Shown one piece after another: positions 8,819 to 63,289 of a stretch of DNA of 64,000 bases. How positions within the stretch are numbered: the stretch's first letter is position 1; every line of letters begins with the position of its first letter. Origin of the DNA: Planctomycetaceae bacterium (GTDB taxonomy: Bacteria > Planctomycetota > Planctomycetia > Planctomycetales > Planctomycetaceae); the NCBI GenBank assembly GCA_018699955.1, contig JABISG010000147.1, positions 96,544 through 160,543 of the forward strand, written 5' to 3'. Both the position numbers and the translations under genes were made by a program. The notes beneath the pieces are model-generated. The model made no database searches. It was not told where the DNA came from and worked only from the letters and a program-made list of their open reading frames with translations.

Positions 8819-8884
8819 TCGCGCTTTTGCGTCAAAACTATGAAACGCGTGGGGCGTTGCCGCGCCGATAAACTTGCGGTCGCG

Positions 8885-9622: not shown

Positions 9623-9635
9623 GTCAGTGTTCCTG

Positions 9636-41800: not shown

Positions 41801-42552
41801 TGTTCGGGGGCAATGTAATCGGGCGTCCCCATCAGCTGCCCGGTGTGCGTCAAGTCGGCTTCGGCCTCGGCATCGGTCATACGGGCAAGGCCCATGTCGA
41901 GCAGCTTGATCACCGGCTCGTTCGAGCTGGTGGCGTGTGTCACCAGCAGATTGCTCGGCTTGATATCGCGATGGACGAGCTTCCGCTCGAATGCGTGTTG
42001 CAGACCTTGTGCCGCCTGCATGATGTAGTGACAGGCTTCGCCAACCGGAAGCGCGCCGTCCCGTTTCACCAGCGAGCCGAGATCCTCGCCATCGACGTAT
42101 TCCATGACCAGAAAATATGTGCTGCCGGCATGATTGGCATCGTAGGCGGCAACGATATTCGGGTGATCGAGCGATGCAGCCGACTGAATTTCCCGGTAAA
42201 ACCGCGCGACCGATTCCTGGTCCTTCATCAGCTTTCGCGCCACCACCTTAATGGCAACCAGCCGGCCGAGCGGTTGCTGCTCCGCTTTGAAGACCGAACC
42301 CATGCCGCCGGCACCGATGCGTTCCAACAGCTTGTACCGGCCTAAGAAGAACGCATGGCGGCCGGCGAGCAACATCTCGGCCTGCCACTGCGTCAGAATT
42401 TGCTGCGCCACGAGCCGCCGCGCGAACTGCTTTGTGTCGCCATTCCCACTGTCGCGAGCGACCTCGTCACGAATCCGAGCCAAATCATCAGCTGCAAGCA
42501 GGCTGCTTTTCTCAAGCCCGTCGAGGAACTGATTCAGCGAAACCGCAGGCAT
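38803..42552 (-). CDS. Ser/Thr protein kinase with Pro/Ala-rich linker, one TM segment and C-terminal WD40 beta-propeller(s)
   Basis: Hanks motifs GAGGMGSVFKA, VAIK, HRDIKPSNLL, DFGLA, APE. TM is IIFGGVGVFLLLVVGYIGWVW. There are 14 or more WD-like repeats (WDVATG, WNVETG...). ATG at 42550-42552. Confidence 0.9.
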   Translation of the reverse strand: MPAVSLNQFLDGLEKSSLLAADDLARIRDEVARDSGNGDTKQFARRLVAQQILTQWQAEMLLAGRHAFFLGRYKLLERIGAGGMGSVFKAEQQPLGRLVAIKVVARKLMKDQESVARFYREIQSAASLDHPNIVAAYDANHAGSTYFLVMEYVDGEDLGSLVKRDGALPVGEACHYIMQAAQGLQHAFERKLVHRDIKPSNLLVTHATSSNEPVIKLLDMGLARMTDAEAEADLTHTGQLMGTPDYIAPEQARDSKTADVRSDIFSLGCTFFRLLTNQVPFTGNTLIEKLLARNERDAPPASSVRGDVPPEIDAIVARMLARNPDNRFQTPAEVVAALVPFAQILPKAATAESTEKTPPPTIAPIAEQTEAVTPAPPASPAGSELQHFLQDLGSEASIMQTDDPSTQTAAEATAFASTAAPMVPVEADESQSNLSASRIRGRRKSGAAQRWIIFGGVGVFLLLVVGYIGWVWTGKTTLIVDWPPEMRAGGSITLNGHKVPLPKQGAIKLSGDPGKQALLLKRKGYEDIEETLSPERGDVVTFQPKWSPKLATVRQEEFTQLVKEFQSINVKQDDEQQLTAIQNRLVEFRRQHPGSPESLEAAWLMWQFKWPVDRLSRQTLTDEQRLIAGNGDIDDAPEQLVAVLGGNRLSHASRDVRSVAFSPDGKLLASSSYDEHIRLWDVATGVHVRTIPVKHWNCHSLSFSPDGSLLAAAYLDFLVGIWNVETGKSVTELPRHEGKVVGVAFSPDGKSIASSDTIGTYLFNSITGKRLQQWPDQRFEIGFNSDGSMLATASQDNDGEITFWNTNTGEAIATELRGRRPFSARGGLLAYRGAGNHLEIWDWKQGGGAYRLTIPLGGGWLPPAISRDGKQLAVFQQGSLAIYDSATGEKREWEKASSPLPRALCLEISPDGETLAAGFQDGSVRFFNAETGQEQFPADGHHGIITSLAVSPNGRRIASAGLDGSVGLWDVVTGKLLRRIDAHIEAIYDIEFLQNGDVLATASQDQLVRLWDTNTGKKLHEMHEHLHPVFALAAHPDGIHLASAGADKGIRVWNTRTYKEVNSLDEHDGYITCLSYSPNGKLLAVGTTAAHIDGVILWDVEKGKRSTTINVADNDCRLIDVQFSANGTRVFFTVRGGGHDAVRIWDLTTGRLGHEPFQGALEEACVASQPQGRIWVRSIGTGSNFVHDTHYGIEEQQFRFGPSPRHVGDVAFTPDGRHLVSGLAGGTICILRLRQWKAEMKKPSEELFD

Positions 42553-42728
42553 AGGACACAAGTGGGAATTCGGGGTTGGTGCATATGGGGGAAAATACGC
42601 GGTTAGAGTGTAGTGGAAGAAGATTTACAAATCTATTGCGTTACACTATCGTCGCGATCGGCGAGCGTCTTCGACTGGGGAAGAGCATCCACTGGTCGAA
42701 GCGCTGACGGCGACATTTTGGCAGCAGT

Positions 42729-44065: not shown

Positions 44066-44109
44066 CGGGGAACCTCAAACAAAGCGATTTGTGAAATACT
44101 GGAAACGAC

Positions 44110-44367
44110 TCAGAACAGCAGAATGATTCCCCAGATCAGCATGGCAAGACTTACCAAAACGCCAATGCCGCCGAAGATGAGATACGCCTTGAGAACGCCG
44201 GATTCTCCGATGAATTTGATGAGCAATCGTCCTCGCCAGCCGGTACCGATCGGCAGATTCTCCGTCCAGGCCGCCTAGGCGATTCCGCCAAAGACAAGCA
44301 GCATCAACAGACCAAATGGCAGTTGATAGGGATAATCCAGCATGGCCAGTGTGAGATGGTGGAGCAT
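44110..44367 (-). pseudogene. small two-TM membrane protein ORF interrupted by an in-frame TAG (44275-44277)
   Basis: The hydrophobic reading frame continues unbroken across the TAG (…LLMLLVFGGIA*AAWTENLPIGTGW…LAMLIWGIILLF*); the distal part has no start of its own. Confidence 0.25.
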
Positions 44368-44478
44368 CAGCTCGTCCGATTCTGTTTCAATAAGAAATGC
44401 GAAGCTCAGGCAGAACGAAATTCGACAGTCAGCAGACACAGCATGCCGCTCGCTGTGTGGCAATGCAAGCAAGGCGAG

Positions 44479-44799
44479 CCGAGGGTGTGAACCCTCGGGT
44501 TTTCCGAAGCACCAGCCGGTTCACACCGGCCGCTCGCCGCCCTAATGTTGTACGCGGGTCTCCCGATCCCGCACGCAGCTAGACCGCAGGTCTTCTGTGA
44601 GTTCGGTGAGACCTACGGTCGCGACCTTGGGTCTTTCCCGCGCAGGCGGGAATCCAGCGAGCCAGCAAAAAACGCAAAACTACCATCGACACACCCACGT
44701 CACCCCAACACGCGCCGCACGGTCGTCCGCGAACCGACTGGATTCCCGCCTGCGCGGGAATGACGATTACTGGTTCCCAAGCTCCAGCTTGGGAACCAG
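44479..44799. repeat. non-coding hairpin-rich cluster: terminator-like stem-loop with U tract (44479-44503), a pair of perfect 21-bp inverted repeats (44635-44655 / 44740-44760), and a perfect 14-bp-stem hairpin (44770-44799)
   Basis: All complementarities checked base by base; no credible ORF in this interval. Confidence 0.5.
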
Positions 44800-44816
44800 G
44801 AAAACGAGACCCTTTA

Positions 44817-44858
44817 GAACAAAAGCACACAGATCACTTGATTCTCAAGATAGTCGCT
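44817..44858. repeat. 42-47-bp dispersed repeat, copy 2 (see 356-397)
   Basis: Direct comparison with 356-397. Confidence 0.55.
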
Positions 44859-44864
44859 ACGTCA

Positions 44865-45269
44865 CTACAGGATTCCACCCATTGCGACATACGTGACAAA
44901 ACGCAGCGCCACTACGCACGCCAAGTGAAAAACGACAGCAGTCATGAGTGCAAGAAACCGTAGCGTTTTCGTAACTGTTGTTTGATCGCGGACCAGTGGC
45001 GCAAACGCAGGGACACAAAGACACAGCCCAAGAACAAATGACGTGAGGGTCAGGATTGCCGTGACAGTGTCATACGTCGCCAATGCCCCGGATTCGTAGA
45101 AATCGTAGTCGCCGACATGGCTGCCAAGAGCCAAGATGCTCACGACGCCCACAACGTACGGGACAATCAATCCGATGCCAGCGAAGTATTCGTTTCGCGT
45201 GACCCTTTTAGACGACAATGGTGGTGTTTCAACAGGTGGCTCGAAAGGAGTTTGCGACGGAGTTGCCAT
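44865..45269 (-). CDS. small hypothetical membrane protein
   Basis: 134 aa, Pro-rich N-terminus and three predicted TM helices. Confidence 0.4.
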   Translation of the reverse strand: MATPSQTPFEPPVETPPLSSKRVTRNEYFAGIGLIVPYVVGVVSILALGSHVGDYDFYESGALATYDTVTAILTLTSFVLGLCLCVPAFAPLVRDQTTVTKTLRFLALMTAVVFHLACVVALRFVTYVAMGGIL

Positions 45270-45990
45270 TTGCGTACTTCGCCCAACTGGGTTCTGGCTG
45301 GCTTGGTGAAACGGTGTCGCACGGAAAGATTATTGTCGAACACTCTCGAACATTATCGCAAGATTCGATCTGAGTTCCATCAGGTTTCCTGGATTATGAT
45401 CGAGTGGGCCGTTGACTCGCCAGCTTGCACGGTTGCCCAAGAAGCGAGCAAATGCGGGGTGGTTGGGCGGTTGGTGGCTCACACTTTGTGTGGGAATCGA
45501 GAATTGGGGAATGGCTGATTTCTGCGGGGATACCTTGGTTTTCTTCCGAAAAAACAGGCTCAACCAAGTTTGGCACACGAGTTGCGTTGTGTTCTCTCAA
45601 CTTGATTTACGAAGTACGCAGTCGTGGTTTGGAAACTGCGGCGGTACTGCCTTTGACGCAGCGCTCACGAAGAAGGCACGAAATTCTGATGATACCAGGG
45701 AACGGCAATCAGTTATGCTCAGCCTTCACACGTTTCGCCAATGCGCCTGCTTGGGATTGGACCCCGCGCGGATCGCGTCGAGTTTTCACAAACGCCAGTT
45801 GAACCGAACGGCCGACGGGCAATCTGCCGCGGCACGGAACACGGATCATTGGTCATGCCATCGCCCGCCCTGCCAGCGATGAGACCCACCGACTGTCGCC
45901 GGTCGCGTCTCTCCGGCTGAACCCAGGATGATTTTCCGATGACGGGAAACGTCCGCATTCTCTCCAATTAGCGATAAGGTTACGTACACC

Positions 45991-47373
45991 GTGGAAGTTC
46001 AGAACAAAGCCACCCGGATTCGTCTCTTCGATTTCAAGACCCCACAAATGCGAGCGTTCCATATGTCGTGGTTCGCGTTCTTTCTCTGCTTCTTTGCCTG
46101 GTTTGGCATCGCCCCGCTGATGTCAGTCGTCCGCCAGGAAATGTCGTTGACGCAATCACAGGTCGGCTGGTGCATTATTGGATCGGTCTCGATCACGGTG
46201 ATCGCCCGGCTGTTTATTGGTTGGCTGTGCGACCGGATTGGGCCGCGGCTGGCGTATACGTGGCTGCTGATTCTCGGTGCGTTGCCGGTGATGGGAATCG
46301 GTTTCGCGCAAAACTTTGAAACGTTTCTGCTGGCCCGCGTGTTGATCGGTGTCATCGGGGCATCGTTCGTCATCACGCAGTATCACACGTCGATTATGTT
46401 CGCCCCGAATTGCGTAGGAACGGCGAATGCCACGACGGCCGGCTGGGGCAACATGGGCGGTGGCGTGACGCAGGTGGCGATGCCCGTGCTGTTTGCCGTT
46501 CTCATTGGCACGTTCGGTTTGAGTGACTACTGGGGCTGGCGGACGGCAATGATCGTCGCCGGCGCGATCTGCATGCTGTCGGGGGTTGCGTACTTCTTTC
46601 TCACACAAGACACGGCAGAAGGTAACTACAAGCAGCTGCGGGCGGCGGGAAAGCTGCCAGATAAAAAAGCCGCGAAGGGGGCGTTTCTCGCGGCGTGCAA
46701 AGATCGCCGCGTGTGGGCGTTATTCGTCATCTACGCGGCTTGCTTCGGCATTGAACTGACAATCAACAACATTGCCGCCCTGTATTTTGTCGATCACTTT
46801 GAATTCTTCAAGCAGATGGACACGCTGGAAGCGGTGAAGCTGGCGGGCGTGTTTGCTGCCTTGTACGGCACGATGAATCTGTTTGCCAGAACGCTGGGCG
46901 GAGCAGTCGGCGATAAGTGTGGCGCACGTTGGGGGTTACAAGGCCGAGTGCGATGGCTGTTCATCGCGTTGTTTTGCGAGGGCGTGTCGTTGATGCTGTT
47001 CTCGCAGATGACCGTGCTCGCGCTGGCCGTTCCCGCTTTGATTGTGTTCGCAGCTTTCGTGCAGATGTCGAACGGGGCCACGTTTTCTGTCGTTCCGTTC
47101 GTCAACAAGAAGGCGCTCGGTTCCGTCGCGGGGATTGTGGGCGCCGGTGGAAATGCCGGTGCGGTGTTGGCGGGTTTTCTGTTCAAGACCGACGCGATTT
47201 CGTGGCCGACGGCGCTGTTCCTTCTGGGAGCCATTGTTACCTGCAGTTCGTTTCTGGCCTTCTCAGTGAACTTCAGCGAAGCCGCCGAAACGGAAGCGCG
47301 AACGGCGACCGAAGCGGCCGCGTCGCAGCGGCGCCGTACAGTCGAACTGGCCGGTGCGACATCCGGTTCCTGA
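45991..47373 (+). CDS. narK: MFS nitrate/nitrite transporter, NNP family (NarK/NrtP-like)
   Basis: NNP signatures GWGNMGGG and GxxxGxxNxG; twelve TM helices; GTG start at 45991 (ATG alternatives at 46048 and 46063). Confidence 0.9.
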   Translation: MEVQNKATRIRLFDFKTPQMRAFHMSWFAFFLCFFAWFGIAPLMSVVRQEMSLTQSQVGWCIIGSVSITVIARLFIGWLCDRIGPRLAYTWLLILGALPVMGIGFAQNFETFLLARVLIGVIGASFVITQYHTSIMFAPNCVGTANATTAGWGNMGGGVTQVAMPVLFAVLIGTFGLSDYWGWRTAMIVAGAICMLSGVAYFFLTQDTAEGNYKQLRAAGKLPDKKAAKGAFLAACKDRRVWALFVIYAACFGIELTINNIAALYFVDHFEFFKQMDTLEAVKLAGVFAALYGTMNLFARTLGGAVGDKCGARWGLQGRVRWLFIALFCEGVSLMLFSQMTVLALAVPALIVFAAFVQMSNGATFSVVPFVNKKALGSVAGIVGAGGNAGAVLAGFLFKTDAISWPTALFLLGAIVTCSSFLAFSVNFSEAAETEARTATEAAASQRRRTVELAGATSGS

Positions 47374-47431: not shown

Positions 47432-50302
47432 ATGAGCAATCCGATTGAAGCCTGGAAATCTGAAAAACATCCATTCGATGTCTGGTCCGACGTCGAGAAA
47501 CATGCGGCGGCGAAGACGCCGATGAAGTCGATTGCTGCGCCCGATTTGGAGCGGATGAAGTGGCACGGGTTTTTGTATCGCAAGCGGGATGGGGCAGGGC
47601 GGTACATGAGCCGCATTCGCATCACCGCCGGCGAATTGACCGGGAAGCAGGCCCGCGAGATTGCGCACATTGCGTACGAATACGGTCACGGCATTGTCGA
47701 TGTGACGACCCGCGCCAACCTGCAGATTCAAGGGTTGGGAATCGAACATGTGCCGAAGGTTGTCGAACGGTTGGCGAATGTGGGGCTGTCGGCAAAACAG
47801 ACGGGACACGACAACATTCGCAATGTGTTTGCCCATCCCTTCAGCGGACTGATGCCGGGCGAATTGATCGACACGCGGCAGTTAAGCCACGACGTGACTG
47901 CGTTGTTCATCGACAGTCGGACGTATTCCGATTTGCCGCGGAAGATGAATATCTGCCTGAATGGCACCGACCAGCATTCCGCGCACTTCTGGACACAGGA
48001 CATTAGTTTTCTGGCGACCGAAGTCGATGGCGACGTGTTGTTTCACATGCTGATTGCCGGCACACAGGGACAGAACCCGCATCTCGCGTGGCATCTGCCG
48101 GTGTTGGTGCAGCCGGATCAGGTCGTTGAAGTCACACGGTCACTGCTCGACTTGTTCCGCGCGAAAGGGTCGCGCGAAAAACGTAACGTCACCCGATTTC
48201 GTTTCCTCGTCGAGAAGATCGGCGTGGGGGGCGTGCTCGATTGGCTGGAGGGGGATTTGCCGTTCCCACTGCAACCGTCTGTCGGCGAGCCGTCACCGGC
48301 GACCGGGCACGATGAACTTGTCGGCTGGTTTCGGCAGGCGGAGCCGAAACTGTGGACGATGGGACTTTCGGTTCCGCTGGGCCGCATGACGTGGCAGCAA
48401 CTCGAAGGCTTGGCGCTTTTGAGCGGCAAGTGGGGAGATGGCAATCTGCGGACAACGCACGAGCAGGGGATTGCCGTCGCAAATATTCCGCCTGGTTTTC
48501 GCGAAGCCGCCGCCACCGATGCAGCCGCTGCCGGATTGAGCGTTCATGCCGATCCATTTGAACTGAATACGATGGCCTGCACCGGCAGCCAGTTCTGTAA
48601 CATCGCCGTCACCGAAACCAAGGGGCAGATGTTCCAGCTGATTGAAAAGCTGCGGAAGCGGGCGCTGAAACTGCATGGCATACGTATCCACATGAGCGGT
48701 TGCCCGTCGAGTTGCGCGCAACACTTTACGGCCGACATCGGTTTGAAAGGTGTCCGCGTCCGCCGATTGATGGGGACGCGAGAAGGTTTCGATGTTTACC
48801 TGGGCGGCGGACTGGCGGGCCGCGTTCATATGGGGTTGCCGTTCCGGCTTGGTGTCGATGCCGATCAGCTACCGACGTTGGTGGAAGAGGTCGTTGGTGA
48901 ATTCTATCTGCGACACAAGGCGGGGCAGACCTTCAGCGCGTATTGGCGGGAAAAACTGCAGGCGGCTGAAGCCCGCAAAGTGATCGACGACGATTATCGT
49001 CTTCCCACCTGGTTGTGTGAGAGCTGCGATTACCAACACACGGGCGAAGATCCGCCCATTTATTGCCCGAGTTGTGCCGGCCTGCGTCGACACTTCGCAC
49101 GTCTGGAAGAAGGCGTTTCTCCCGACGCAGAAAAGGATGCCATAGTCGAAACCGTACCGACCCGCGACGACGGGTTTGTCTTCGCCGCAAAACACGATGC
49201 CTTATCCGCCGACGAAGGGCTGACAGTTGAAGTGGGCGGAAGCGAATACGCGTTGTTTCAGGTTGGCGACGACGTGAAGTGCATCGATTCCGCCTGTCCG
49301 CATGAAGGTGCTTCGCTTGCCGAGGGTGAAATGAAGGGCGGTGTCGTCACCTGTCCATGGCACGGCTGGAGATTCAACCCGTGTGACGGTTGCAGTCTCG
49401 ATTCCCCGGGGGACGACGTCGCAGCGTACAGGACGTTGGTTGAAGACGGAAACATTTTCATCGAGGTCGGTTCACCATCACAGGCAAGCAATTCCGGCGC
49501 ACCGAATTCAACGCAGGCGATCCTCGCGACTGCAGGCAAAGGAGCAGCGAAGAAGCCGCCGAGACCGGTGGAAGCGTTGTTGCCGGTGCTTGATGTCATC
49601 GACGAGTCGCCCAACGTTCGCACATTTCGGCTCGATAATTCCGTTGCCAGGATTCCGTTCGATTTGCCCGGTAAGTTTGCCAAGGTTTGCGTTCCCGCTG
49701 ACGATGGCGACGTTTGGCGGAGCTTTACAATCAGTTCTTCGCCCACAGTGACCGACCACATTGATCTGACGATTAAGCTGAACCCCGACGGCTGTGTGTC
49801 TCGGCATCTCTTTGAGAATGCTCAGCCCGGAAGCCATGTGAAAGTGAAGGGCGCACAGGGCGGGTTCTTCTTCGATGCGGAACGGCAAACCGAGCCGTTG
49901 GTGTTGATTTCCGCCGGCAGCGGGATCACACCGATGATGTCAATTGCCCGTTATCTCGATGCCGTCGGCAGTAACTTGGATTGCACATTTCTCTACGGAG
50001 CGCGGTCGTCGGGCGATGTCATCTTCCGCGATGAGTGTGAAGACATGGCGAAACGCCGACCGTCGTTTCGCTATCGTGTCACGCTTTCGCAGCCGAATGA
50101 TGACTGGAGCGGCGAATGCGGGCGGCTCGACTTTGACCGTGTTTCAAGATGGGTGGAGAACATTGGCGAGAGTTGCTACTTCCTCTGTGGACCAAACGAA
50201 TTCATGGACCAGCTGCGATCAGCGCTCGTCGATGCGGGTGTCGATTCGGATCATATTCACAGCGAAGAGTTTCACAGTTCACCAACACCGGTTGCGTTGT
50301 GA
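47432..50302 (+). CDS. nirA: multidomain nitrite reductase: siroheme/[4Fe-4S] ferredoxin-type nitrite reductase (NirA-like), rubredoxin-like zinc ribbon, Rieske [2Fe-2S] (NirD-like) and FNR-like FAD/NAD(P)-binding reductase
   Basis: NiR/SiR cluster motifs (CTGSQFC, SGCPSSC). CxxC...CPSC ribbon. Rieske CPHEG...CPWHGW. FNR motifs RSFTISS and ISAGSGITPM. 956 aa. Confidence 0.9.
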   Translation: MSNPIEAWKSEKHPFDVWSDVEKHAAAKTPMKSIAAPDLERMKWHGFLYRKRDGAGRYMSRIRITAGELTGKQAREIAHIAYEYGHGIVDVTTRANLQIQGLGIEHVPKVVERLANVGLSAKQTGHDNIRNVFAHPFSGLMPGELIDTRQLSHDVTALFIDSRTYSDLPRKMNICLNGTDQHSAHFWTQDISFLATEVDGDVLFHMLIAGTQGQNPHLAWHLPVLVQPDQVVEVTRSLLDLFRAKGSREKRNVTRFRFLVEKIGVGGVLDWLEGDLPFPLQPSVGEPSPATGHDELVGWFRQAEPKLWTMGLSVPLGRMTWQQLEGLALLSGKWGDGNLRTTHEQGIAVANIPPGFREAAATDAAAAGLSVHADPFELNTMACTGSQFCNIAVTETKGQMFQLIEKLRKRALKLHGIRIHMSGCPSSCAQHFTADIGLKGVRVRRLMGTREGFDVYLGGGLAGRVHMGLPFRLGVDADQLPTLVEEVVGEFYLRHKAGQTFSAYWREKLQAAEARKVIDDDYRLPTWLCESCDYQHTGEDPPIYCPSCAGLRRHFARLEEGVSPDAEKDAIVETVPTRDDGFVFAAKHDALSADEGLTVEVGGSEYALFQVGDDVKCIDSACPHEGASLAEGEMKGGVVTCPWHGWRFNPCDGCSLDSPGDDVAAYRTLVEDGNIFIEVGSPSQASNSGAPNSTQAILATAGKGAAKKPPRPVEALLPVLDVIDESPNVRTFRLDNSVARIPFDLPGKFAKVCVPADDGDVWRSFTISSSPTVTDHIDLTIKLNPDGCVSRHLFENAQPGSHVKVKGAQGGFFFDAERQTEPLVLISAGSGITPMMSIARYLDAVGSNLDCTFLYGARSSGDVIFRDECEDMAKRRPSFRYRVTLSQPNDDWSGECGRLDFDRVSRWVENIGESCYFLCGPNEFMDQLRSALVDAGVDSDHIHSEEFHSSPTPVAL

Positions 50303-50310
50303 GGTGGGCG

Positions 50311-52059
50311 ATGCAAGCTGTTGAACATGAAACGACTCAATCGACCAGGGCATCCGTCGTCGGGGAGCCATTGCTGCCGATTGTCGAAGTCCGTCGATGT
50401 GATGATGACGGGGGATCGCTCATCGCGTTGCTGCTCGCCGAACAGCAACAGTTGACCGCGGTCGAACAATTCAGCCGCGAACAGAAGATCGGCGACGTTC
50501 CAGCGCAGGCAAAGCATTACACAAAGCTGCTTCCGGCGACTGCTCCGGCTGAGGGGCAACAGTATGCTTTCGAGGTCGATCTCGATCGCTGTTCCGGTTG
50601 CATGGCCTGTGTTACTGCCTGTCATTCGTTGAACGGGTTGGACGAGGATGAGACGTGGCGCGACGTCGGTTTGATGATTGGCGGCACGTCTTCTAATCCA
50701 ATCAAGCAGCATGTGACGACGGCCTGTCATCATTGTCTCGAACCGGCCTGCATGATCGCTTGCCCCGTCGATGCTTACGAGAAGGATCCGGTCACCGGCA
50801 TCGTCAAGCATCTCGACGATCAATGCTTTGGCTGCCAATATTGCACGCTCGCCTGCCCGTATGATGTCCCCAAGTACCATCACAAAAAGGGCATCGTCCG
50901 CAAGTGTGACATGTGCAGTTCGCGTTTGGCTGTGGGTGAAGCACCGGCGTGCGTGCAGGCGTGTCCTCACGAAGCGATTGCGATCACGTTGGTTGAAACC
51001 CGTGACGTCAAAGAAAACGCCGAGGCCGACTACTTCCTGCCGGCGGCCCCCGAACCGCACCTCACGTTTCCGACCACTCATTACAAGACGTCGCGGGTGT
51101 TTCCCCGCAATACGCTGCCCGTTGATTACCACGCGACAAGCCCGCAGCATCCTCATTGGCCGCTGATTCTCATGCTGGTTCTTACGCAGTTATCGGTCGG
51201 CGCTTTTGTTGCGGGGCTTGTGTTGGATGAGGTTTTGAATTCCGCGCTGTTGGCTGCCTTTGCACCGTTGCATGCCACCACCGCGCTCATATTCGGGTTG
51301 CTGGCGCTCGGGGCCAGCACGCTGCATTTGGGGCGACCGCAATTCGCGTTTCGTGCCATCGTGGGATTACGGCATTCGTGGCTCAGCCGCGAGATATTGG
51401 CATTCGGACTGTTCGCGGGAGCTGCGATTGTTTTCTCTGCGTCATCATGGGTCGATTGGTCACCTGGGTGGTTGAACTATGGGCTGGGATGGTGCGTTGC
51501 CGTCACCGGAATTGGCGGCGTCTTCTGCTCGGTGATGCTCTATGCCTTCACGCGACGTGAATTCTGGAGCTTTCCACAAACGGCCACCAGGTTCGTGCTG
51601 ACGTCGGCCATGCTCGGCATTGCCGCGACATGGCTTTCTATTTTGTTGGTTGGTGTTGTCGGTGAGAGTCGTTCGGCCCACGAACTGGCCACCGTTGCCG
51701 GCGACAAGTTATCGCAATCGCTCATCGCTTTAGCAGCAGCCAAATTGCTGTTCGAGATGTCGTTGTTTCGACATCTCGCCGCACGTCGTGTGACGCCCTT
51801 GAAACGGTCCGCCTGGTTAATGTTGGGACGACTTTCAAATCACAGTTTGGCGCGATTTGCACTCGGACTGCTTGGCGGAATCTGTATGCCGCTGTTTCTG
51901 CTGAGCCGACATGCGGTCGGTGCCGATTCGGCCGGCGTGATTGAAGTGATCATTGTTGCAATGCTGTTTGCTGCCTGCCTGGTGGGCGAATTGCTCGAGC
52001 GCTACCTGTTTTTCGCCGCTTGTTCGGCCCCACGAATGCCGGGATTGCACAGTGGTTAG
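50311..52059 (+). CDS. 4Fe-4S ferredoxin (DmsB-like, four Cys clusters) fused to an NrfD/DmsC-like polytopic membrane anchor
   Basis: Four CxxCxxCxxxCP motifs at residues about 95-250, then eight or more TM helices. GAGGTG RBS, ATG at 50311, 8 bp after the nirA stop. Confidence 0.8.
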   Translation: MQAVEHETTQSTRASVVGEPLLPIVEVRRCDDDGGSLIALLLAEQQQLTAVEQFSREQKIGDVPAQAKHYTKLLPATAPAEGQQYAFEVDLDRCSGCMACVTACHSLNGLDEDETWRDVGLMIGGTSSNPIKQHVTTACHHCLEPACMIACPVDAYEKDPVTGIVKHLDDQCFGCQYCTLACPYDVPKYHHKKGIVRKCDMCSSRLAVGEAPACVQACPHEAIAITLVETRDVKENAEADYFLPAAPEPHLTFPTTHYKTSRVFPRNTLPVDYHATSPQHPHWPLILMLVLTQLSVGAFVAGLVLDEVLNSALLAAFAPLHATTALIFGLLALGASTLHLGRPQFAFRAIVGLRHSWLSREILAFGLFAGAAIVFSASSWVDWSPGWLNYGLGWCVAVTGIGGVFCSVMLYAFTRREFWSFPQTATRFVLTSAMLGIAATWLSILLVGVVGESRSAHELATVAGDKLSQSLIALAAAKLLFEMSLFRHLAARRVTPLKRSAWLMLGRLSNHSLARFALGLLGGICMPLFLLSRHAVGADSAGVIEVIIVAMLFAACLVGELLERYLFFAACSAPRMPGLHSG

Positions 52060-52083
52060 TCACACCTTGCCTCTCCTCAAATT

Positions 52084-54288
52084 ATGAACGACAACACCGC
52101 CACAATTCGTGAATTGCTGCATCAGCGGTCTGGGCCGCTTACTCGGGAATTGATGCTCGAGCCGGGCCGATTCGGTTTGGGCCAGGTTCCCGCGTCCGCC
52201 AAACCCGATGCGACGACGGGCATGGTGTGCGGATACTGTTCGACGGGTTGCAATCTCAACGTTCACCTCAAAGAGGGCGAAGCGGTCGGTCTCTCGCCGA
52301 CGACCGATTATCCCGTCAATCTGGGGATGGCCTGCCCAAAGGGGTGGGAAGCGCTCACCGTGCTTGACTCAGCTGACCGTGCCACAACGCCGTTGTTGAG
52401 AAACCCGGGCGGACGATTGGAACCAGTCGAATGGGAAACCGCGATGCGGACCTTCGTTGATCGCTTCAAGGGAATTCAAGAGAAGCATGGCAAGCATTCG
52501 GTTGCGTTTCTGGGGACGGGGCAAATCCCAACCGAAGAGATGGCGTTACTCGGCGCGTTGACGAAATTCGGCATGGGGATTCTGCACGGAGATGGCAACA
52601 CGCGGCAATGCATGGCGACATCGGTGGTCGCCTACAAGCAGGCCTTCGGTTTCGATGCGCCCCCTTACACTTATGCCGACTTTGAAGAGTCGGACGTTAT
52701 CGTCCTCGTCGGCAGCAACCTCTGCATTGCGCATCCCATTATGTGGGAACGTGTGATGCGAAACCCGCATCAGCCGGAAATCGTCGTCATCGATCCGCGC
52801 ATGACCGAGACGGCGATGAACGCCACCCAGCATCTGCCGCTTGCGCCGAAATCCGATCAATCACTGCTCTACGGCATCGCCCGCATACTTATCGAAAACG
52901 ACTGGATCGATCATCGATTTGTTGAAGCGGCGACCAACGAATTTGCCGAGTTCGTCGAATTCGTGGCGCCGTTCACCGACGATCGCGTTGCCAATGACAC
53001 GGGGCTGACGGCCGAACAACTCCACCGATTCGCCGAGACGATCCACGGCGGCAAACGCGTTTCCTTCTGGTGGACGATGGGGGTCAATCAAAGTTATCAA
53101 GGCGTTCGCACGGCGCAGGCGATTATCAACCTTGCGCTAATGACTGGCAACATCGGCCGGCCCGGCACCGGTGCGAATTCTATTACCGGTCAATGCAACG
53201 CGATGGGTTCGCGGCTTTTCAGCAACACGAGCAATCTGCTTGGAGGACATGACTTCACGAATGCCGAACATCGGAAAAAGATTGCCGGCATTCTCGACAT
53301 CGATGCCGAGGCGATCCCCACTGAAAACAGTTGGGCTTACAACGAAATTATTGAGGGGATTCTGCGAGGCAAGATCAAAGGGTTGTGGGTCATTTGCACG
53401 AACCCTGCGCATTCCTGGATCAATCAGAACCAATGTCGCGACATTCTCGACCGGCTCGACTTTCTCGTCGTGCAGGACATGTATGCTAATACCGAGACGG
53501 CAGAGATGGCCGACCTTGTTCTGCCGGCTGCCGGCTGGGGTGAAAAGGAAGGAACCTTCATCAATTCCGAACGCCGCATCGGTGTTCTCAAGAAGGTGGC
53601 CAAGGCTCCCGGTCAAGCGATTTCCGATTTCAACATCTTCAAACTCGTTGCGCACTACTGGGGCTGCGGCGAGATGTTCGAGCGTTGGCAGACGCCCGAA
53701 GACGTCTTCCAGATTCTCAAGCAATGCTCGGCGGGACAGCCGTGCGATATCACTGGGATCGAAGGCTATCGGCACATCGATCAAGGCGGCGGTATTCAAT
53801 GGCCGTTTGCGTCCGGCGATATCGAAGCGACGCGGGAACGGCGTCTATTCGAAGACGGGCAGTTCTTTCATCCCGACGGCAAAGCGAGATTCCTGTTCGA
53901 GGAACCTCGTCCGTTAAGCGAACCGCCCACCAAGCGCTTTCCGTTCATCCTGCTCACCGGACGGGGGACGGCTTCTCAGTGGCACACGCAGACCCGAACC
54001 GGGCAGTCGGCTGTACTGCGGAAGCTGTACCCGAAAAAGCTCATCGTCGAAATCAATCCGGCCGATGCCGAGCGCCTGCAGATTGGTCCGGGGGAGCGGG
54101 TGGTCGTGAAATCACAGCGCGGCCGCATCGAGGCACGCGCCTTTCTCACGCCGACCATTCAACGCGGCCAGGTTTTCGTGGCGATGCACGACCGCACGGT
54201 CAACCAGCTAACCGATGCGGTCTTCGACCCGTATTCCAGGCAGCCCTCGTACAAGGCGTGTGCCGTGCAAGTTATGCGGCATCCGTAA
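52084..54288 (+). CDS. nasA: assimilatory-type molybdopterin nitrate reductase catalytic subunit (NasA/NarB-like), no Tat signal
   Basis: N-terminal [13 protein letters not shown] [4Fe-4S] motif, MopB core and C-terminal molybdopterin dinucleotide-binding barrel; 734 aa. Confidence 0.9.
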
Positions 54289-54321: not shown

Positions 54322-55842
54322 TTAATACTGCAGCGTTGTCATCAGGTACAATTGTTTGGCGTCGTCTCGTGGCAGGTTCTGGTTCACGAAGGCACCGTAC
54401 CAAAACAATGAGTAACCCAGTTGCACGTTGAGGTTTTTGTTGACCTTGTATTTCGCGATCAGGTCGAGTTCTTCACCAATGTCGCGGCTGCCGCCGACGG
54501 CACCAAACGGAACGCGTGCAACGTTGTAGGCGGTGTCGCTCGTTTTCGCTCGATCAAAAAAGTGAAACGCGGCAACGAGTTTCAAGCGGTCCGTCGGTTT
54601 GACGTCGGCCTGAATGCTGTAATCGAGCAGGTTCTGCCCGCTGAGGTTGTCGATAATTCCCCAGTAAGAGTGTCCGAACGGATACAGCACGTCGAAGGTG
54701 TTGCTTTGGCCGTCGTTGGGGTCATCATCGCCCGACCCCCAATAGAAGAGTCCGCCGATACGTGGTTGCCAGGCGACGTTTTTCCAGCGATGACCGCCTT
54801 GCATCGTAAAGAACCCGGCGCTGACATCCGCCCCGGCATCGGAACCAAACTGATAGGCACCTTCCATGTCGAAGTCCCAGACGCGAGCAACGTTGCAGCA
54901 GCAATCGGTGATGGGAATCTCACCGCCATAACGCATCCCGATGGTGTGCCGACGACCGCCCACGGGGAGACGCGCCGCGCGGCTATCTTCTTTCCACAAC
55001 CAGTACAAATCGAGAGTGCGGTTTTCATAACCTTTGTAAGAGGTGTAAAGGCCGGTGAATTGGACATCGTGTCCTGGTCGGTCGCGTTCGTTGTCTTGAA
55101 GGGCAAGCGCGGTTTCACGTGTGGTGCTGTTGACCGGATTGGCTGTGAACAGATCGATGTCCCAGTCGCAAGTTGTCATATACAGGCGATGGCCCTGAAA
55201 GTTCCGCCGCGTGTTTGCCCAGTCGAGCGTAGAGACCAGGCGTTGTTTTCCGTACTGCAAGTCCTGGCGACCGTAACGATACCAACTGTCGGCTTCGCTC
55301 CAGAGGGGGACTCGAACTTCCGCGTAGGCGTTGAGCAGATCCCAACGGTTCTTGTCGATCGAAAGAGCTGGAAGTTCCTCGTCGAAAATCGATGCATCAA
55401 TTCCTTCGACATAGACGCGTGCCCAATCGCTCACGTTCAATTGGACGAAGTGCCGCCATCGCCAGAGATCGTACGTGCTGCGGCCCGGCCCTCCGGGACG
55501 AATGCGATCGTCTTCATCGATGTAACGGTATCGTAATTCGCCACCGGTCGAGAGCGTTACGCCGTCAGACAAACAGACGTCTCGCAGGTTGTGTAAAAGG
55601 AGTTCGTCACTGTTCAGCCAATGGTCGCATGATCCACCGCCGGTCTCGCAGAGGTAGTCGATGGGCTGAGTGTCGTTGCCGGAAAAAATGATCTCGGCTG
55701 CGGATTCGTCACTTGTGCTGCTGACATCGAGTGTCGGCTCATTCGTCGCCGACTCGTTCGTGTCGGTTTCTTCAGCTGCAGAGAGAAACGGCGTACAGCT
55801 GAGAATCAAAGCACAAAGGTGAACGCGTATGAAGAGTGGCAT
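54322..55842 (-). CDS. outer-membrane beta-barrel porin, alginate-export (AlgE-like) family candidate
   Basis: Signal peptide (MPLFIRVHLCALILSCTPFLSAAE), alternating amphipathic beta strands rich in Y/W/G, C-terminal ...TTLQY. ATG at 55840-55842. Confidence 0.65.
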   Translation of the reverse strand: MPLFIRVHLCALILSCTPFLSAAEETDTNESATNEPTLDVSSTSDESAAEIIFSGNDTQPIDYLCETGGGSCDHWLNSDELLLHNLRDVCLSDGVTLSTGGELRYRYIDEDDRIRPGGPGRSTYDLWRWRHFVQLNVSDWARVYVEGIDASIFDEELPALSIDKNRWDLLNAYAEVRVPLWSEADSWYRYGRQDLQYGKQRLVSTLDWANTRRNFQGHRLYMTTCDWDIDLFTANPVNSTTRETALALQDNERDRPGHDVQFTGLYTSYKGYENRTLDLYWLWKEDSRAARLPVGGRRHTIGMRYGGEIPITDCCCNVARVWDFDMEGAYQFGSDAGADVSAGFFTMQGGHRWKNVAWQPRIGGLFYWGSGDDDPNDGQSNTFDVLYPFGHSYWGIIDNLSGQNLLDYSIQADVKPTDRLKLVAAFHFFDRAKTSDTAYNVARVPFGAVGGSRDIGEELDLIAKYKVNKNLNVQLGYSLFWYGAFVNQNLPRDDAKQLYLMTTLQY

Positions 55843-56389
55843 AGCGACGTCCTCACGTGTGGGAGAGCTGGGTGGCGGGGGGATGGGAATGGTGGGGAGT
55901 GGACCGGATGTGATTCGATCCACAGCAGAAGAATCGGCTACTGCGAGAAAATGACTACAGAGAATCAACACAACCACGGCCGGTTGTCGGTTGATCGTTG
56001 AAAGCCAGCTAAAAAAACGCGATTGCCGATCCAACCGACACAAGTGCCAGCAAGATCACAAGCCGGTCAATGCGAACGGGCGAGCTGTGAAATGTGCGAT
56101 TTCGAGTGTTGCGCCGGCTGTGGATCGAACCGGAATCCGGCGTTTATGGGTAGTATTCCGACCCGGCATCCCTGTTGTCTCAGTGACGTAATTCTCTGCT
56201 GGTCCGATTGTGCAGATCACAACATTCTTGCGTCGTGAACACTCTGCCGCACGGACGGCGCCGCCGTACTCCCAGTAATATTCCTCCGCGCATGCTCCCA
56301 AAATGCAACTATGCTTTGGCTGTATTAGTACGGGAATCCACCGACAAAGGTTGACGGGGTAGTTTCCCTGCGCAAGCAAGGAGTTTTCG

Positions 56390-60193: not shown

Positions 60194-63100
60194 TCAGTTC
60201 TCTTCTGATTCCGCCGGCTGACTATCGGGGGCGGTCGGCGTCACTGGCTGCTCTTGTAGTCGGTAGATGCCGTCTCCGTCGATCCAGATGGTTAGTGGGC
60301 GTGTGAGGATGCCCAGATCCAGCGGCGCGCCGCGTTCGGGAAACAGCGGCCACAACTGCGTGCAGTTCCGGTGCAGTTCGAACGAATAGCCGTTGACGGA
60401 GACCGAATTGACCCCCGCCGGTCCGGATGTTCCCGTGATACCAACGCCTCGCCCGGCAATATCGATCGTAACCTTGCCGCCACCGTCGGCGGGCATCTGG
60501 CCGCCGCTTTGGGTGTTGTTGTTCTCGGTTTCAATCCCTTCGAAAACCATGGTGACTCCGTCGAAGGTAAAGGTCGGGTGGCCGTCCTGGGATTGAACGG
60601 TGAAATCGATTAATTCGTCGGCGTTGCTTTCACCGCTTGCGTTGCCGGTCTTGTTCCCGTTGTTCAGATAGGCCGACACACCGAGGCCGACGACGGAACC
60701 GATTGCCAGCACGACCAGCAGAATCGCCCAACCGGTGAAACTTCCATTGGAACCAGAATCCGCTTCCTTCCGCTTGAAGGCGTCTTTGACATCACTGCCG
60801 CTGAGTGCAACGAGCGCCCAAATGCCGATTGGGAAACCGATCACATTACCCGGCGTGACGATCATCGCCAGGACAGCGGCGAAGATTCCCAAACCCCGGG
60901 ATTCGCAACGCATGATTCTCAGACCGGAAAAAATCATTAACGCGCTGAACACGAAGATGGCAGCGGCGACGCTGCCGAACACGGTCGCCGACGGGCCGGG
61001 AGCCGGTTCAGCAAGTGACAGATACGACGACATGGCGATCAGAAAAGGCAGGACCAGCCAATTCGCAATTCCAGTGAACACCAGACCGATGCCCGGGCCG
61101 CGAAGTTGCCGGCATACGGCGTCGGCTTCATCTGTTCCATGTGGTGTCTCAGAGTCGGTCGGCTCGTGAAGAGGCCGACTTGCCTTCCTCCAGACGGCGC
61201 GACAGATTAAGACATCGACCAGGATCGCCATCGGTAATGCAACGAGCATCGGCAGCATGACGTTCACGCCGGCATGGCTGCCCTCTATCCCCATAACGTC
61301 CTGGATCGTGCTGATCCCAATGGAAACCAACGCGGCCACGACGAAGCAGATCAACACATCGAGAAGCAATAGCGGAAACAACAACGCGTCGCCGACAGCC
61401 AGCGGAAGTCCGACCAACCGGTTCTGCGAGTGCCGGATGTCGCTGATTGCAATGGTTCCCAGAATTGTTGTGCCGAATGGTGCCGCCAGACCCAGTGGTA
61501 GGGCGGTGCAGATCAGCACCCATTGCCACCATTCCGGTCCCGGTGAAGGAGTTTGTCTGTCGATGACAGTGGCAGGCGGAGGCGTGGTTGTAGAAACGGA
61601 GCTGCCGACCGGGCGACTTGTGGTCTCGGTGATCGAACTGCCGCTCATTGTCGATGAGTTGACCTGACGAACAGTTTGTAAATAGACAGACCCGAATGCA
61701 ACGATGAAGAACAACGGTGCCCAGGCCGCTCCCCAAATCGCTTTGCGGGAAAAACGAGGTGGGACCGATTCCCAGGTGGAACTGCTGACAGGAGCCGGCC
61801 CGGCGCCGGCTGGCAGTGCCGCCGTCGGGGCATTTCCTTTTCCTGCTACCGCTTCCATGGTACTCGACTGCGGAACGCGTGTGGGCGATTGCGGCAACTG
61901 GCCGTGACCGGCAAATGCGTCCTGCACGTCTGGTTTCGACAGCACAATTAACGCCCAGATTCCAAACGGCAGGCTGATCAGAAAACCCAGCGTGCAAGGC
62001 AGCACGGCAATGACGGCCGCAATCACTGCGATTCGATGAGATTGCAAATCGAACATCCGCACCGCTCCGGCAATCAGCATCGTTCCCATCGCCAGACTGC
62101 AAGCGACGACCAGAAGTTCCGTCGGTCCCGGAATACCCATTCCTTTTCCGTTGGACAGCAACGTAATTACGACGGGAATCAGAACAATTGACAGCGTTGC
62201 CAGGAGATTGACAATTCCTGCAACCAGCAACCCGATTGCGGGAACCTTGAGTCGCCCGCGGACTAACGCATTATCTGCAGTGGAGATGGACTGCGCAGCC
62301 GGAGGCAAGATGCCGGCGGTTGTCAGAATGGATTCGACCTCCTTCTTCACGTCGCTGGCGTGCTGATAACGGCGTTCGGGTTCCGACTCCAGCGACCGCA
62401 GTACCACTTCATCCAGCCGAACATCGACCTGCACTTTTTTCGACGGTGGCTGGAATCGGCCGATGGGCAACTCGCCGGTCAGCATCTCGTAAAACACCAC
62501 GCCCAGCGAGTAGATATCGGCCCGGTGATCGACGTCATGCGATCCGCGCATCTGCTCTGGTGCCATGTACTGCAGTGTTCCCATCACCTGATTGGTGCCG
62601 GTCAAAGTGAATGGCTTCTCACCCGGTGAATTCTCAGCATCAACGCCCAGCAGTTTTGCCAGTCCGAAGTCTGCGATCTTGACCCGTCCCCGTTTGTCGA
62701 TGAGAACATTTTCCGGCTTAATATCCCGGTGAACGACACCTTCTTCGTGCGCGAATTGCAGGGCGTCACAAATCTGGGGGACAATCGCCAATGCCTCCTT
62801 CGGCTGCAACCCGCCGGCCTCAATCGTCTGCCGCAGGTTGGCTCCATCGACGTACTCCATGACGAAGTAGTACAGTCCGTCGGCCTCGCCGAAATCGTAC
62901 ACAGCCACAATGCATGTATGGTTGAGCATGGCCAGAGCGCGGGCTTCGCGCATGAAGCGTTCGGCGAAGGCGGGATCTTTCCCGATCTCCGGCGGCAGGA
63001 TTTTCAGCGCGACGAGACGGTCGAGACTTGGCTGCCGCGCTTTGTAGACGGCACCCATTCCCCCTTTACCCAGCAGTTCGATGATTTCGAGTTGCGGGAA

Positions 63101-63289
63101 ATGTTCAGCCAGTTTTTCCACCGACGGTGCGACAAACCCCGAGCCGATCACGGTCGGATCGCCCGGCTCCCCCGCAGACTGTTCGCGGCTCTCGAACCCC
63201 AGTTGCATCAAACACTTCGGGCAGACGCCCTCGGGGGCATCGGCGGGAAGTTCGGCATCGCATTGGGGGCATTGTCGGATTTCGGTCAT
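60194..63289 (-). CDS. Ser/Thr protein kinase with N-terminal zinc ribbon, large polytopic membrane domain with internal repeats, and C-terminal extracytoplasmic domain
   Basis: CPQCDAELP...CPKC ribbon. Hanks motifs GKGGMGAVYKA, HRDIKPENVL, DFGLA, APE. Ten or more TM helices with the duplicated module ...P(F/I)GIWAL..LS..DV.DAF. Confidence 0.9.
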   Translation of the reverse strand: MTEIRQCPQCDAELPADAPEGVCPKCLMQLGFESREQSAGEPGDPTVIGSGFVAPSVEKLAEHFPQLEIIELLGKGGMGAVYKARQPSLDRLVALKILPPEIGKDPAFAERFMREARALAMLNHTCIVAVYDFGEADGLYYFVMEYVDGANLRQTIEAGGLQPKEALAIVPQICDALQFAHEEGVVHRDIKPENVLIDKRGRVKIADFGLAKLLGVDAENSPGEKPFTLTGTNQVMGTLQYMAPEQMRGSHDVDHRADIYSLGVVFYEMLTGELPIGRFQPPSKKVQVDVRLDEVVLRSLESEPERRYQHASDVKKEVESILTTAGILPPAAQSISTADNALVRGRLKVPAIGLLVAGIVNLLATLSIVLIPVVITLLSNGKGMGIPGPTELLVVACSLAMGTMLIAGAVRMFDLQSHRIAVIAAVIAVLPCTLGFLISLPFGIWALIVLSKPDVQDAFAGHGQLPQSPTRVPQSSTMEAVAGKGNAPTAALPAGAGPAPVSSSTWESVPPRFSRKAIWGAAWAPLFFIVAFGSVYLQTVRQVNSSTMSGSSITETTSRPVGSSVSTTTPPPATVIDRQTPSPGPEWWQWVLICTALPLGLAAPFGTTILGTIAISDIRHSQNRLVGLPLAVGDALLFPLLLLDVLICFVVAALVSIGISTIQDVMGIEGSHAGVNVMLPMLVALPMAILVDVLICRAVWRKASRPLHEPTDSETPHGTDEADAVCRQLRGPGIGLVFTGIANWLVLPFLIAMSSYLSLAEPAPGPSATVFGSVAAAIFVFSALMIFSGLRIMRCESRGLGIFAAVLAMIVTPGNVIGFPIGIWALVALSGSDVKDAFKRKEADSGSNGSFTGWAILLVVLAIGSVVGLGVSAYLNNGNKTGNASGESNADELIDFTVQSQDGHPTFTFDGVTMVFEGIETENNNTQSGGQMPADGGGKVTIDIAGRGVGITGTSGPAGVNSVSVNGYSFELHRNCTQLWPLFPERGAPLDLGILTRPLTIWIDGDGIYRLQEQPVTPTAPDSQPAESEEN

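Follow-up and report, generated by a model that had tools for sequence, protein, structure and literature searches.

From where does a nitrate reductase of assimilatory type draw its electrons if its closest genetic partner encodes a membrane anchor? This question is raised by two adjacent genes in a stretch of 64,000 nucleotides from Planctomycetaceae bacterium (GenBank assembly GCA_018699955.1, contig JABISG010000147.1, positions 96,544 to 160,543 of the forward strand), which is referred to here as the window and whose own numbering is used throughout. Nitrate reductases are conventionally divided into respiratory enzymes of the membrane or periplasm (Nar and Nap), which depend on quinol, and soluble assimilatory enzymes (Nas and NarB), which depend on ferredoxin, flavodoxin or NADH. 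A preliminary description, made from the sequence alone, had read the pair as a Nas-like molybdenum enzyme fed by an iron-sulfur (FeS) protein fused to a membrane anchor. We conclude that the two genes probably encode a membrane-bound, cytoplasm-facing, non-electrogenic menaquinol:nitrate oxidoreductase for the first step of nitrate assimilation. The gene positions given earlier agree with the open reading frames (ORFs) and their Pfam matches:

50311..52059, + strand: DmsB-DmsC fusion gene (beta-gamma), 582 amino acids; assigned by Fer4_11, PF04976, conservation and AlphaFold2 (AF2) fold.
52084..54288, + strand: mopB, predicted Nas-type catalytic subunit with molybdenum bis-pyranopterin guanine dinucleotide (Mo-bisPGD), 734 amino acids; assigned by Pfam and NCBIfam matches, active-site alignment and neighbour-joining (NJ) tree.

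The product of the first gene matches Fer4_11 (E 8e-22) and DmsC (PF04976; E 1.6e-10, above cutoff). Its match to the DmsB model TIGR02951 (E 9e-37, 126.6 bits) lies under the cutoff of 214.1, and the narH model gives 45 bits against a cutoff of 524. Two domains are apparent:

50560..50997, + strand: four-[4Fe-4S] domain, residues 84-229, 36% identical to E. coli DmsB over 154 residues.
51151..52056, + strand: DmsC-type anchor, residues 281-582, with eight transmembrane (TM) helices; assigned by hydropathy, AF2 helices 283-569 and hhalign.

The clusters of the first domain would be held by C94/97/100/104, C139/142/147/151, C172/175/178/182 and C199/202/214/218, and in an alignment of 89 homologues, 40-59% identical to the query, each of these 16 cysteines shows either no variation or a conservation of at least 90%. 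In an hhalign profile comparison, the anchor covers residues 6-283 of the 287 residues of E. coli DmsC (97.7% probability). The AF2 model of the fusion, which was built on the homologue alignment, has a predicted local distance difference test score (pLDDT) of 90 and a predicted template modelling score (pTM) of 0.87, with eight long helices in 283-569. Its halves match those of the polysulfide reductase of Thermus (template modelling scores of 0.76 to PsrB, 2vpw_B, and 0.65 to PsrC, 2vpw_C), and further fold matches were obtained to ArrB and FdnH for the FeS half and to ActC of alternative complex III for the anchor half. The nearest plasmid relatives are separate dmsB and dmsC genes lying side by side, colinear with the fusion and 31-35% identical to it; no fused form was seen on plasmids. 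Given the domain matches, the DmsC profile alignment, the fold matches and the colinear plasmid genes, the 582-residue product is, by sequence and predicted fold, a dmsB-dmsC gene fusion, in agreement with the four-cluster ferredoxin joined to a polytopic anchor that had been described. One further conserved element precedes cluster I:

50416..50490, + strand: N-terminal helix pair 'LLxEQxxLTAVERFS', residues 36-60, conserved across the 89 homologues.

Its two helices (37-46 and 50-60) are modelled with moderate pLDDT only (57-69); the pair may be a contact site for MopB, perhaps ordered only within the complex.

If the anchor is to feed electrons to the clusters, it should have retained a site for quinol. 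The quinol-site residues of E. coli DmsC are S62, H65, S82 and E87, and replacement of H65 stops quinol oxidation (PMC8076601, in which the mutational evidence on H65 and E87 is reviewed). The corresponding region of the fusion is:

51316..51393, + strand: putative quinol-site loop, TM2-TM3, in which S336, H339, S356, S359 and E361 are equivalent to S62, H65, S82, S85 and E87 of E. coli DmsC.

The register across this site is free of gaps in the hhalign alignment. H339, S356 and E361 are found in 89/89 homologues, S359 in 88/89 and S336 in 54/89. Because the equivalents of H65, S82 and E87 are invariant, the anchor would be expected still to oxidise quinol. Of the quinol-driven reaction proposed earlier, the site is thus borne out by its invariant residues, and quinol use itself is what we infer from them. 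The quinone species would be menaquinone, since DmsC-type sites use menaquinol and the carrier phyla Planctomycetota, Acidobacteriota and Myxococcota are menaquinone organisms.

The second gene encodes the putative catalytic subunit, with matches above cutoff to Molybdop_Fe4S4 (PF04879; E 2e-11), Molybdopterin (PF00384; E 1e-62) and Molydop_binding (PF01568; E 4e-29). Three of its features bear on the argument:

52228..52335, + strand: [4Fe-4S] motif of cluster FS0, C49-x2-C52-x3-C56...C84-P-K86-G; assigned by reading of the sequence and Molybdop_Fe4S4.
52609..52614, + strand: molybdenum ligand Cys176 with Met177, aligned with D. desulfuricans NapA (2NAP).
52111..52224, + strand: N-terminal extension, residues 10-47, 38 amino acids, 'LLHQRDGPLTRELLLxPGGFGLGxVPAxxKPDATT'.

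The FS0 stretch reads C49-G-Y-C52-S-T-G-C56, with C84 as the fourth cysteine, and is the NasA/NarB-type N-terminal motif that had been recognised before. The active site is completed by M332 (53077-53079) and R377 (53212-53214); C176/M177/M332/R377 align with Cys140/Met141/Met308/Arg354 of the monomeric NapA of D. desulfuricans (2NAP), which is also the closest solved structure (E 9e-105). The residue following the molybdenum ligand is Met, as opposed to the His of formate dehydrogenases (Fdh). Identity amounts to 45-46% with a MopB of Cetobacterium, 32-36% with proteobacterial and Gram-positive Nas-type enzymes, 30-32% with NapA, 26% with E. coli FdhF and 21% with DmsA. In a rough NJ tree (18 sequences without cyanobacterial NarB or B. 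subtilis NasC, 687 columns, 300 bootstraps, DmsA as outgroup), the fusion-linked MopBs are monophyletic (97%) and sister to the soluble Cetobacterium MopB (100%); they join proteobacterial NasA in 63% of bootstraps, and NapA or Fdh in 0/300. A NasA of Pantoea, for which there was no intact ORF, was left out as a reference. NCBIfam scores are 449.6 bits to NasA_Halo NF041323 (cutoff 1000), 445 bits to NasC NF047855 (cutoff 1100) and 320-336 bits to NapA models (cutoffs 904-931), and the top score belongs to the broad Fdh-alpha model TIGR01591 (496.7 bits, under cutoff). From active site and tree position, MopB is a distinct lineage of predicted Nas-type nitrate reductases, which upholds the earlier assignment of a Nas-like catalytic subunit.

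The N-terminal extension is conserved in 51 fusion-linked MopBs and absent from the NasA proteins of Ralstonia and Sinorhizobium and from the Cetobacterium sister. It has the length of a twin-arginine translocation (Tat) leader, and its 'TRELLL' is similar to a decayed S/T-R-R-x-F-L-K motif, without being a Tat signal. NarG carries a non-functional remnant leader (PMC10609526); by analogy, the extension may be a remnant leader, or a docking arm for a chaperone or the beta subunit.

Do the two genes belong together? The objection that the fusion might be part of an unrelated adjacent operon falls, because a Nas-type MopB of 64-78% identity lies directly 3' of it in 72/72 loci for which 1.5 kb or more of downstream DNA is available. 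Loci were counted among the best 80 of a scan with one genome per species; these come from Planctomycetota (Planctomycetaceae, Pirellulales and Phycisphaera), Vicinamibacterales (Acidobacteriota) and Sorangium (Myxococcota), so that the pairing of fusion and MopB spans three phyla. Carriers include Symmachiella dynata, Maioricimonas rarisocia, Alienimonas chondri and Sorangium cellulosum. It is kept in a member of 42% identity, where the two reading frames overlap by 8 nt; in a member of 43% identity the next gene is cut off by the end of the contig and lacks a Pfam record. Upstream, a sirohaem nitrite reductase gene is found directly 5' in 48/56 loci with at least 4.5 kb of DNA on that side (37 of NirB type, 11 of NirA type), and a NarK homologue occurs within the flanks of 37/80. 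Across the scan as a whole, relatives of the fusion were confirmed at at least 588 of 599 matched places. A HMMER search of the whole library returned 900 clusters (50% identity) at E < 1e-30, and most of the best 150 matches span nearly the entire query, from about residue 36 to 578. Because of this strict gene pairing and the overlapping or adjacent reading frames, MopB and the fusion protein would be expected to associate at the cytoplasmic face as an alpha-(beta-gamma) complex.

In the window, the pair closes a tandem of four + strand genes in the order narK-nirA-(dmsBC fusion)-mopB, separated by gaps of 58, 8 and 24 nt. The first two are:

45991..47373, + strand: narK-like nitrate/nitrite transporter of the major facilitator superfamily, first gene of the operon; MFS_1 E 1e-32.
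47432..50302, + strand: nirA, nitrite reductase fusion of 956 amino acids; NIR_SIR, NIR_SIR_ferr, Rieske, FAD_binding_6 and NAD_binding_1.

The narK product matches the NarK family TIGR00886 with E 2e-85 and 287 bits, under the cutoff of 311.7. The nirA product matches the ferredoxin-nitrite reductase model NF007125 (E 1.5e-103) and combines a sirohaem/[4Fe-4S] core of ferredoxin-type NirA (residues 1-520), a rubredoxin-like Cys knuckle (527-555), a Rieske/NirD-like module (584-680) and an FNR-like FAD/NAD(P)H module (720-950). Such a protein resembles a self-contained nitrite reductase running on NAD(P)H, and would use up nitrite in the cytoplasm. The same architecture was found in loci of Vicinamibacterales and Pirellulales, with the Rieske part kept in 13/14 NirA loci and the FNR part in 9/14.

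The fusion gene itself is best read from the ATG at 50311, which lies 8 nt past the nirA stop and is preceded by a purine-rich GGTGG stretch. An in-frame ATG at 50149, with which the listed ORF (50149-52059) begins, was rejected as the start, because conservation among homologues sets in only near residue 36 of the product that starts at 50311 and because the longer frame would overlap nirA by 154 nt. The earlier statement that the fusion is translationally coupled to nirA could be checked in part: the two genes are separated by a gap of 8 nt and do not overlap.

On which side of the membrane would the complex work? The eight-helix layout puts the N-terminal FeS domain, loops 2-3, 4-5 and 6-7 and the C-terminus on one side. 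Lysine and arginine residues (K+R) in the internal loops number on average 13.3 on the FeS side and 1.7 on the opposite side (mean of 89 homologues), or 19.2 and 1.7 when the segments adjoining TM1 and TM8 are counted, and the FeS side is the richer in 89/89 homologues. E. coli DmsC shows the reverse, with four on the periplasmic, DmsB side and eight opposite. A Tat-like signal, defined by a twin-arginine regular expression together with a test of h-region hydrophobicity, was found in 0/51 MopB homologues and 0/89 fusion homologues, whereas the leaders of E. coli NapA and DmsA, used as positive controls, were both flagged. The catalytic subunit thus lacks a Tat signal throughout, as had been claimed for the single sequence, and the two objections raised in advance against a cytoplasmic enzyme, affiliation with periplasmic enzymes and a cryptic Tat signal, found no support in the tree (0/300 with NapA) or in this test. 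Taken together, the positive-inside bias, the missing Tat signals and the context of narK and a cytoplasmic nitrite reductase support a location of the FeS domain and quinol-site loop, and by consequence of the catalytic subunit, on the cytoplasmic side, with an anchor inverted relative to DmsC; the membrane-tethered, cytoplasm-facing arrangement of the preliminary description is thereby sustained. Only SoeABC had previously been proposed as an NrfD-like complex that faces the cytoplasm with an inverted anchor (PMC8076601).

From these elements the following route can be proposed. Nitrate would be imported by NarK. Menaquinol would be oxidised at the cytoplasmic-face site of TM1-4 (H339, S356 and E361), and its electrons would pass through the four [4Fe-4S] clusters of the DmsB-like domain, and then through FS0 (C49/52/56/84), to the Mo-bisPGD (Cys176), the cytoplasmic site at which nitrate would become nitrite. 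The conversion of nitrite to ammonium would fall to NirA or NirB, the sirohaem nitrite reductase encoded alongside. As the protons released by quinol and those taken up in nitrate reduction would both be on the membrane's negative (N) side, the nitrate step should be electroneutral, unlike that of NarGHI; upstream dehydrogenases could still conserve energy by way of the quinone pool.

Several observations weigh against this reading. Quinol-linked molybdoenzymes are typically respiratory, 8/56 loci have no adjacent nitrite reductase gene, and the Sorangium loci have no narK inside 8 kb; for these reasons a purely assimilatory role is uncertain. We found no usable literature on growth of Sorangium with nitrate as sole nitrogen source. 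DmsC-type anchors contain no cofactor, so that the case for quinol use is made by conserved residues alone, and the Rieske and FNR modules of the neighbouring NirA could in principle supply the FeS domain with electrons. The topology was deduced by the positive-inside rule and from the model of a single chain, and the NCBIfam equivalog cutoffs for NasA, NasC and DmsB are all unmet. In the literature searched, no biochemical or genetic study of any family member was found.

What else could the pair be? The same complex might work mainly in dissimilation or redox balancing: where oxygen is limiting, it would dispose of electrons from quinol by reducing nitrate to nitrite, which NirB or NirA would turn into ammonium. 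It might also translocate ions through the NrfD-like domain, and assimilation would be secondary. Its architecture is that of the respiratory complex iron-sulfur molybdoenzymes (CISM), and NirB-type partners are the commonest (37/56 loci); NirB also serves fermentative nitrite ammonification in enterobacteria. Ion pathways have been proposed in NrfD-like subunits (PMC8076601), and a reduction of nitrate to nitrite is reported for some Acidobacteria that have 'nasA' genes only (PMC5900883) and that may or may not carry the fusion-type enzyme. An N-side quinol site alone, however, gives no charge separation, narK with a sirohaem nitrite reductase is the classic assimilation set, and the carriers are mostly aerobic heterotrophs. 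We therefore regard a mainly dissimilatory role as unlikely, though by no means negligible, and it would be compatible with assimilation. The DmsC-type domain might, on the other hand, be a mere membrane tether, with the four-cluster domain fed from soluble sources, either ferredoxin or, through the NirA Rieske/FNR modules and in the manner of Paracoccus NasG/NasB, NAD(P)H. The adjacent NirA does have Rieske and FNR-like modules, and in classical Nas systems such as Paracoccus NasBGC the nitrite and nitrate reductases share NADH-derived electrons. ActF provides the precedent of an NrfD-like subunit that does not bind quinone (PMC8076601). Yet the invariance of H339, S356 and E361 in 89/89 diverged sequences is hard to square with a passive tether, an eight-helix domain conserved over its full length would be costly for tethering alone, and the pairing is kept next to the NirA fusion, next to NirB and in loci that have neither as neighbour; we consider a tether improbable.

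Two further alternatives concern the catalytic subunit. Apart from SoeABC, for which the opposite orientation is hypothesised, the characterised DmsC, NrfD and PsrC complexes all face the positive (P) side (PMC8076601), and the MopB extension, with its Tat-leader length and decayed 'TRELLL' motif, could be taken as the trace of an export signal. The planctomycete complex would then face the periplasm like DmsABC or Nap, having been exported by an unrecognised route, and NarK would import nitrite. This is very hard to reconcile with the absence of a twin-arginine motif and h-region from 51 MopBs and 89 fusions, with a positive-inside bias of 13.3 to 1.7 that holds in all sequences, and with a tree in which MopB never groups with NapA. 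Finally, the operon context could be misleading and MopB could be a formate or other oxyanion oxidoreductase, as its top NCBIfam score to the broad, sub-cutoff Fdh-alpha model might suggest. The Met where Fdh has His next to the molybdenum ligand, the equivalents of NapA Met308 and Arg354, the lower identity to FdhF (26%) than to Nas-type enzymes (33-45%) and a nitrate/nitrite gene context conserved in three phyla leave this explanation with scarcely any credit. We thus retain a quinol-linked, cytoplasm-facing nitrate reductase as the probable product of the pair.

Comparison with characterised enzymes shows how such a nitrate reductase would be composed. Known Nas enzymes receive electrons from ferredoxin, from flavodoxin, or from NADH via NasB, NasG or C-terminal domains. 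With the soluble Nas enzymes (NasA, NasC and NarB) the planctomycete system shares a cytoplasmic Mo-bisPGD subunit, the N-terminal [4Fe-4S] cluster, the Cys ligand, the lack of a Tat signal and the genes for a transporter and a sirohaem nitrite reductase; it differs in its constant membrane-integral partner, the DmsB-DmsC fusion, and in the 38-residue MopB extension. The resemblance to soluble Nas therefore holds at the level of the catalytic subunit only, at 32-36% identity to proteobacterial NasA. The closest MopB found outside the fusion family belongs to a soluble nitrate reductase of Cetobacterium/Clostridium type (45-46% identity), which has neither an anchor nor the N-terminal extension and is partnered by a dicluster ferredoxin-like protein and an FAD oxidoreductase. 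On plasmid p1 of Cetobacterium somerae (6980-10738), the MopB gene is followed by genes for this 135-residue 4Fe-4S dicluster protein and the FAD-dependent oxidoreductase. The difference in partners suggests an exchange within the lineage, in which the DmsBC fusion either took the place of a soluble donor module linked to NAD(P)H or was itself replaced by one.

The beta and gamma modules are homologous to, and colinear with, those of the E. coli DMSO (dimethyl sulfoxide) and selenate reductases DmsABC and YnfFGH, and have the same quinol-site residues. Compared with DmsABC, the planctomycete modules are fused, the gene order is (BC)-A instead of A-B-C, the Tat leader is missing, the predicted orientation is inverted and the catalytic subunit is of Nas type. 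NarGHI, too, is a quinol:nitrate oxidoreductase that is bound to the membrane and faces the cytoplasm; its beta subunit has four clusters, and it serves assimilation in mycobacteria. It is, however, electrogenic, with P-side quinol oxidation by the dihaem cytochrome b NarI, whereas the planctomycete anchor is of the haem-free DmsC type with an N-side site; NarG, of another MopB clade, has an Asp ligand in place of Cys176. The defining features of NapA, a Tat leader and membership of the NapA clade, are not seen in the planctomycete MopB. With SoeABC, of which SoeC has the His65/Glu87 pair (PMC8076601), the system shares the proposed cytoplasmic orientation, the proposed inversion of the anchor and the proposed position of the quinone site on the N side; by description, SoeABC differs in oxidising sulfite and reducing quinone, and hence in the direction of electron flow, in its three separate subunits and in the type of its catalytic subunit. 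The features by which an N-side, SoeABC-like complex is recognised, absence of export signals together with an inverted anchor (PMC8076601), are found in the planctomycete system. So are those of an alpha-beta-gamma CISM enzyme, namely a 16-Cys four-cluster protein and a haem-free, eight-TM anchor of NrfD/DmsC type with a putative quinol site. Overall, the system would be a CISM enzyme with a Nas-type head, DmsABC-like modules, a SoeABC-like orientation and the location and chemistry of NarGHI.

Around the operon, one neighbour may be connected with nitrate:

54322..56043, - strand: outer-membrane beta-barrel of the Alginate_exp family, convergent neighbour of mopB; PF13372 E 4e-78.

A similar porin occurs within the flanks (8 kb) of 17/80 related loci, Acidobacteriota included. 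The barrel is a possible outer-membrane nitrate/nitrite channel, or anion porin, that may or may not belong to the system. The other flanking ORFs are unrelated to the operon and comprise a short-chain dehydrogenase/reductase (- strand), a response regulator, a hybrid histidine kinase and Ser/Thr kinases; the two-component genes lie downstream, beyond the beta-barrel. Neither a NarJ/TorD-type chaperone nor an additional redox partner was found among the flanking ORFs. The roughly 1.9 kb 5' of narK (44066-45990) contain no Pfam-positive ORF and may carry regulatory elements of the operon. In a Rfam scan of this region nothing exceeded the gathering score, the top match being Acido-Lenti-1 (22 bits against 37), and a scan of 44-57 kb for promoters and terminators gave no more matches than shuffled sequence. 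Further away on the - strand, 38803-42561 and 60194-63289 encode two large eukaryote-like Ser/Thr protein kinases, one with a long WD40 array, which are apparently unrelated to the operon.

The significance of the pair lies in the wiring of a Nas-type enzyme. According to Wells et al. (2020), no member of the Nas/Nap/Aio/Fdh clade associates with canonical four-cluster and anchor subunits (PMC7331816), and the 2021 catalogue of NrfD-like complexes includes no nitrate reductase (PMC8076601). We found no description of a DmsBC-type partner of a Nas enzyme in the searchable full-text literature, which leaves out subscription papers, where an earlier account is possible. The electron supply, called unusual in the preliminary description, is thus unusual by the literature searched, yet common in nature, with at least 588 species. 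The family is apparently uncharacterised and is annotated in generic or misleading terms, such as 'Anaerobic dimethyl sulfoxide reductase chain B' or 'DmsC/YnfH family ... anchor subunit'. A Nas-type enzyme wired to a quinol-oxidising anchor would break the rule of Wells et al. (PMC7331816), and would be the second proposed cytoplasm-facing NrfD-like complex after SoeABC. As a suggested energetic rationale, the electrons for assimilation would first cross a proton-pumping respiratory segment, whose energy is wasted by a soluble, NADH- or ferredoxin-dependent Nas. Tentatively, and with more doubt than attaches to the enzyme itself, a Nas-type subunit joined to the quinone pool by an inverted, cytoplasm-facing DmsBC might be ranked as a fourth bioenergetic class of nitrate reductase, beside Nar, Nap and soluble Nas.

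Should this hold true, many 'nasA' genes of Planctomycetota, Acidobacteriota and Myxococcota, phyla abundant in soil and water, would encode a quinol-linked enzyme, which bears on how 'nasA' counts in nitrogen-cycle surveys are read. Such an enzyme could also take part in nitrate reduction for dissimilation or redox balance, and its NrfD-like domain might be a path for ion translocation. If the Acidobacteria mentioned above (PMC5900883) carry the quinol-linked type, their reduction of nitrate to nitrite would be explained. The two genes offer a compact system for the study of inverted NrfD-type anchors, and their distribution suggests that in at least 588 other species, too, the electrons for nitrate reduction may come from the quinone pool and not from ferredoxin or NADH.

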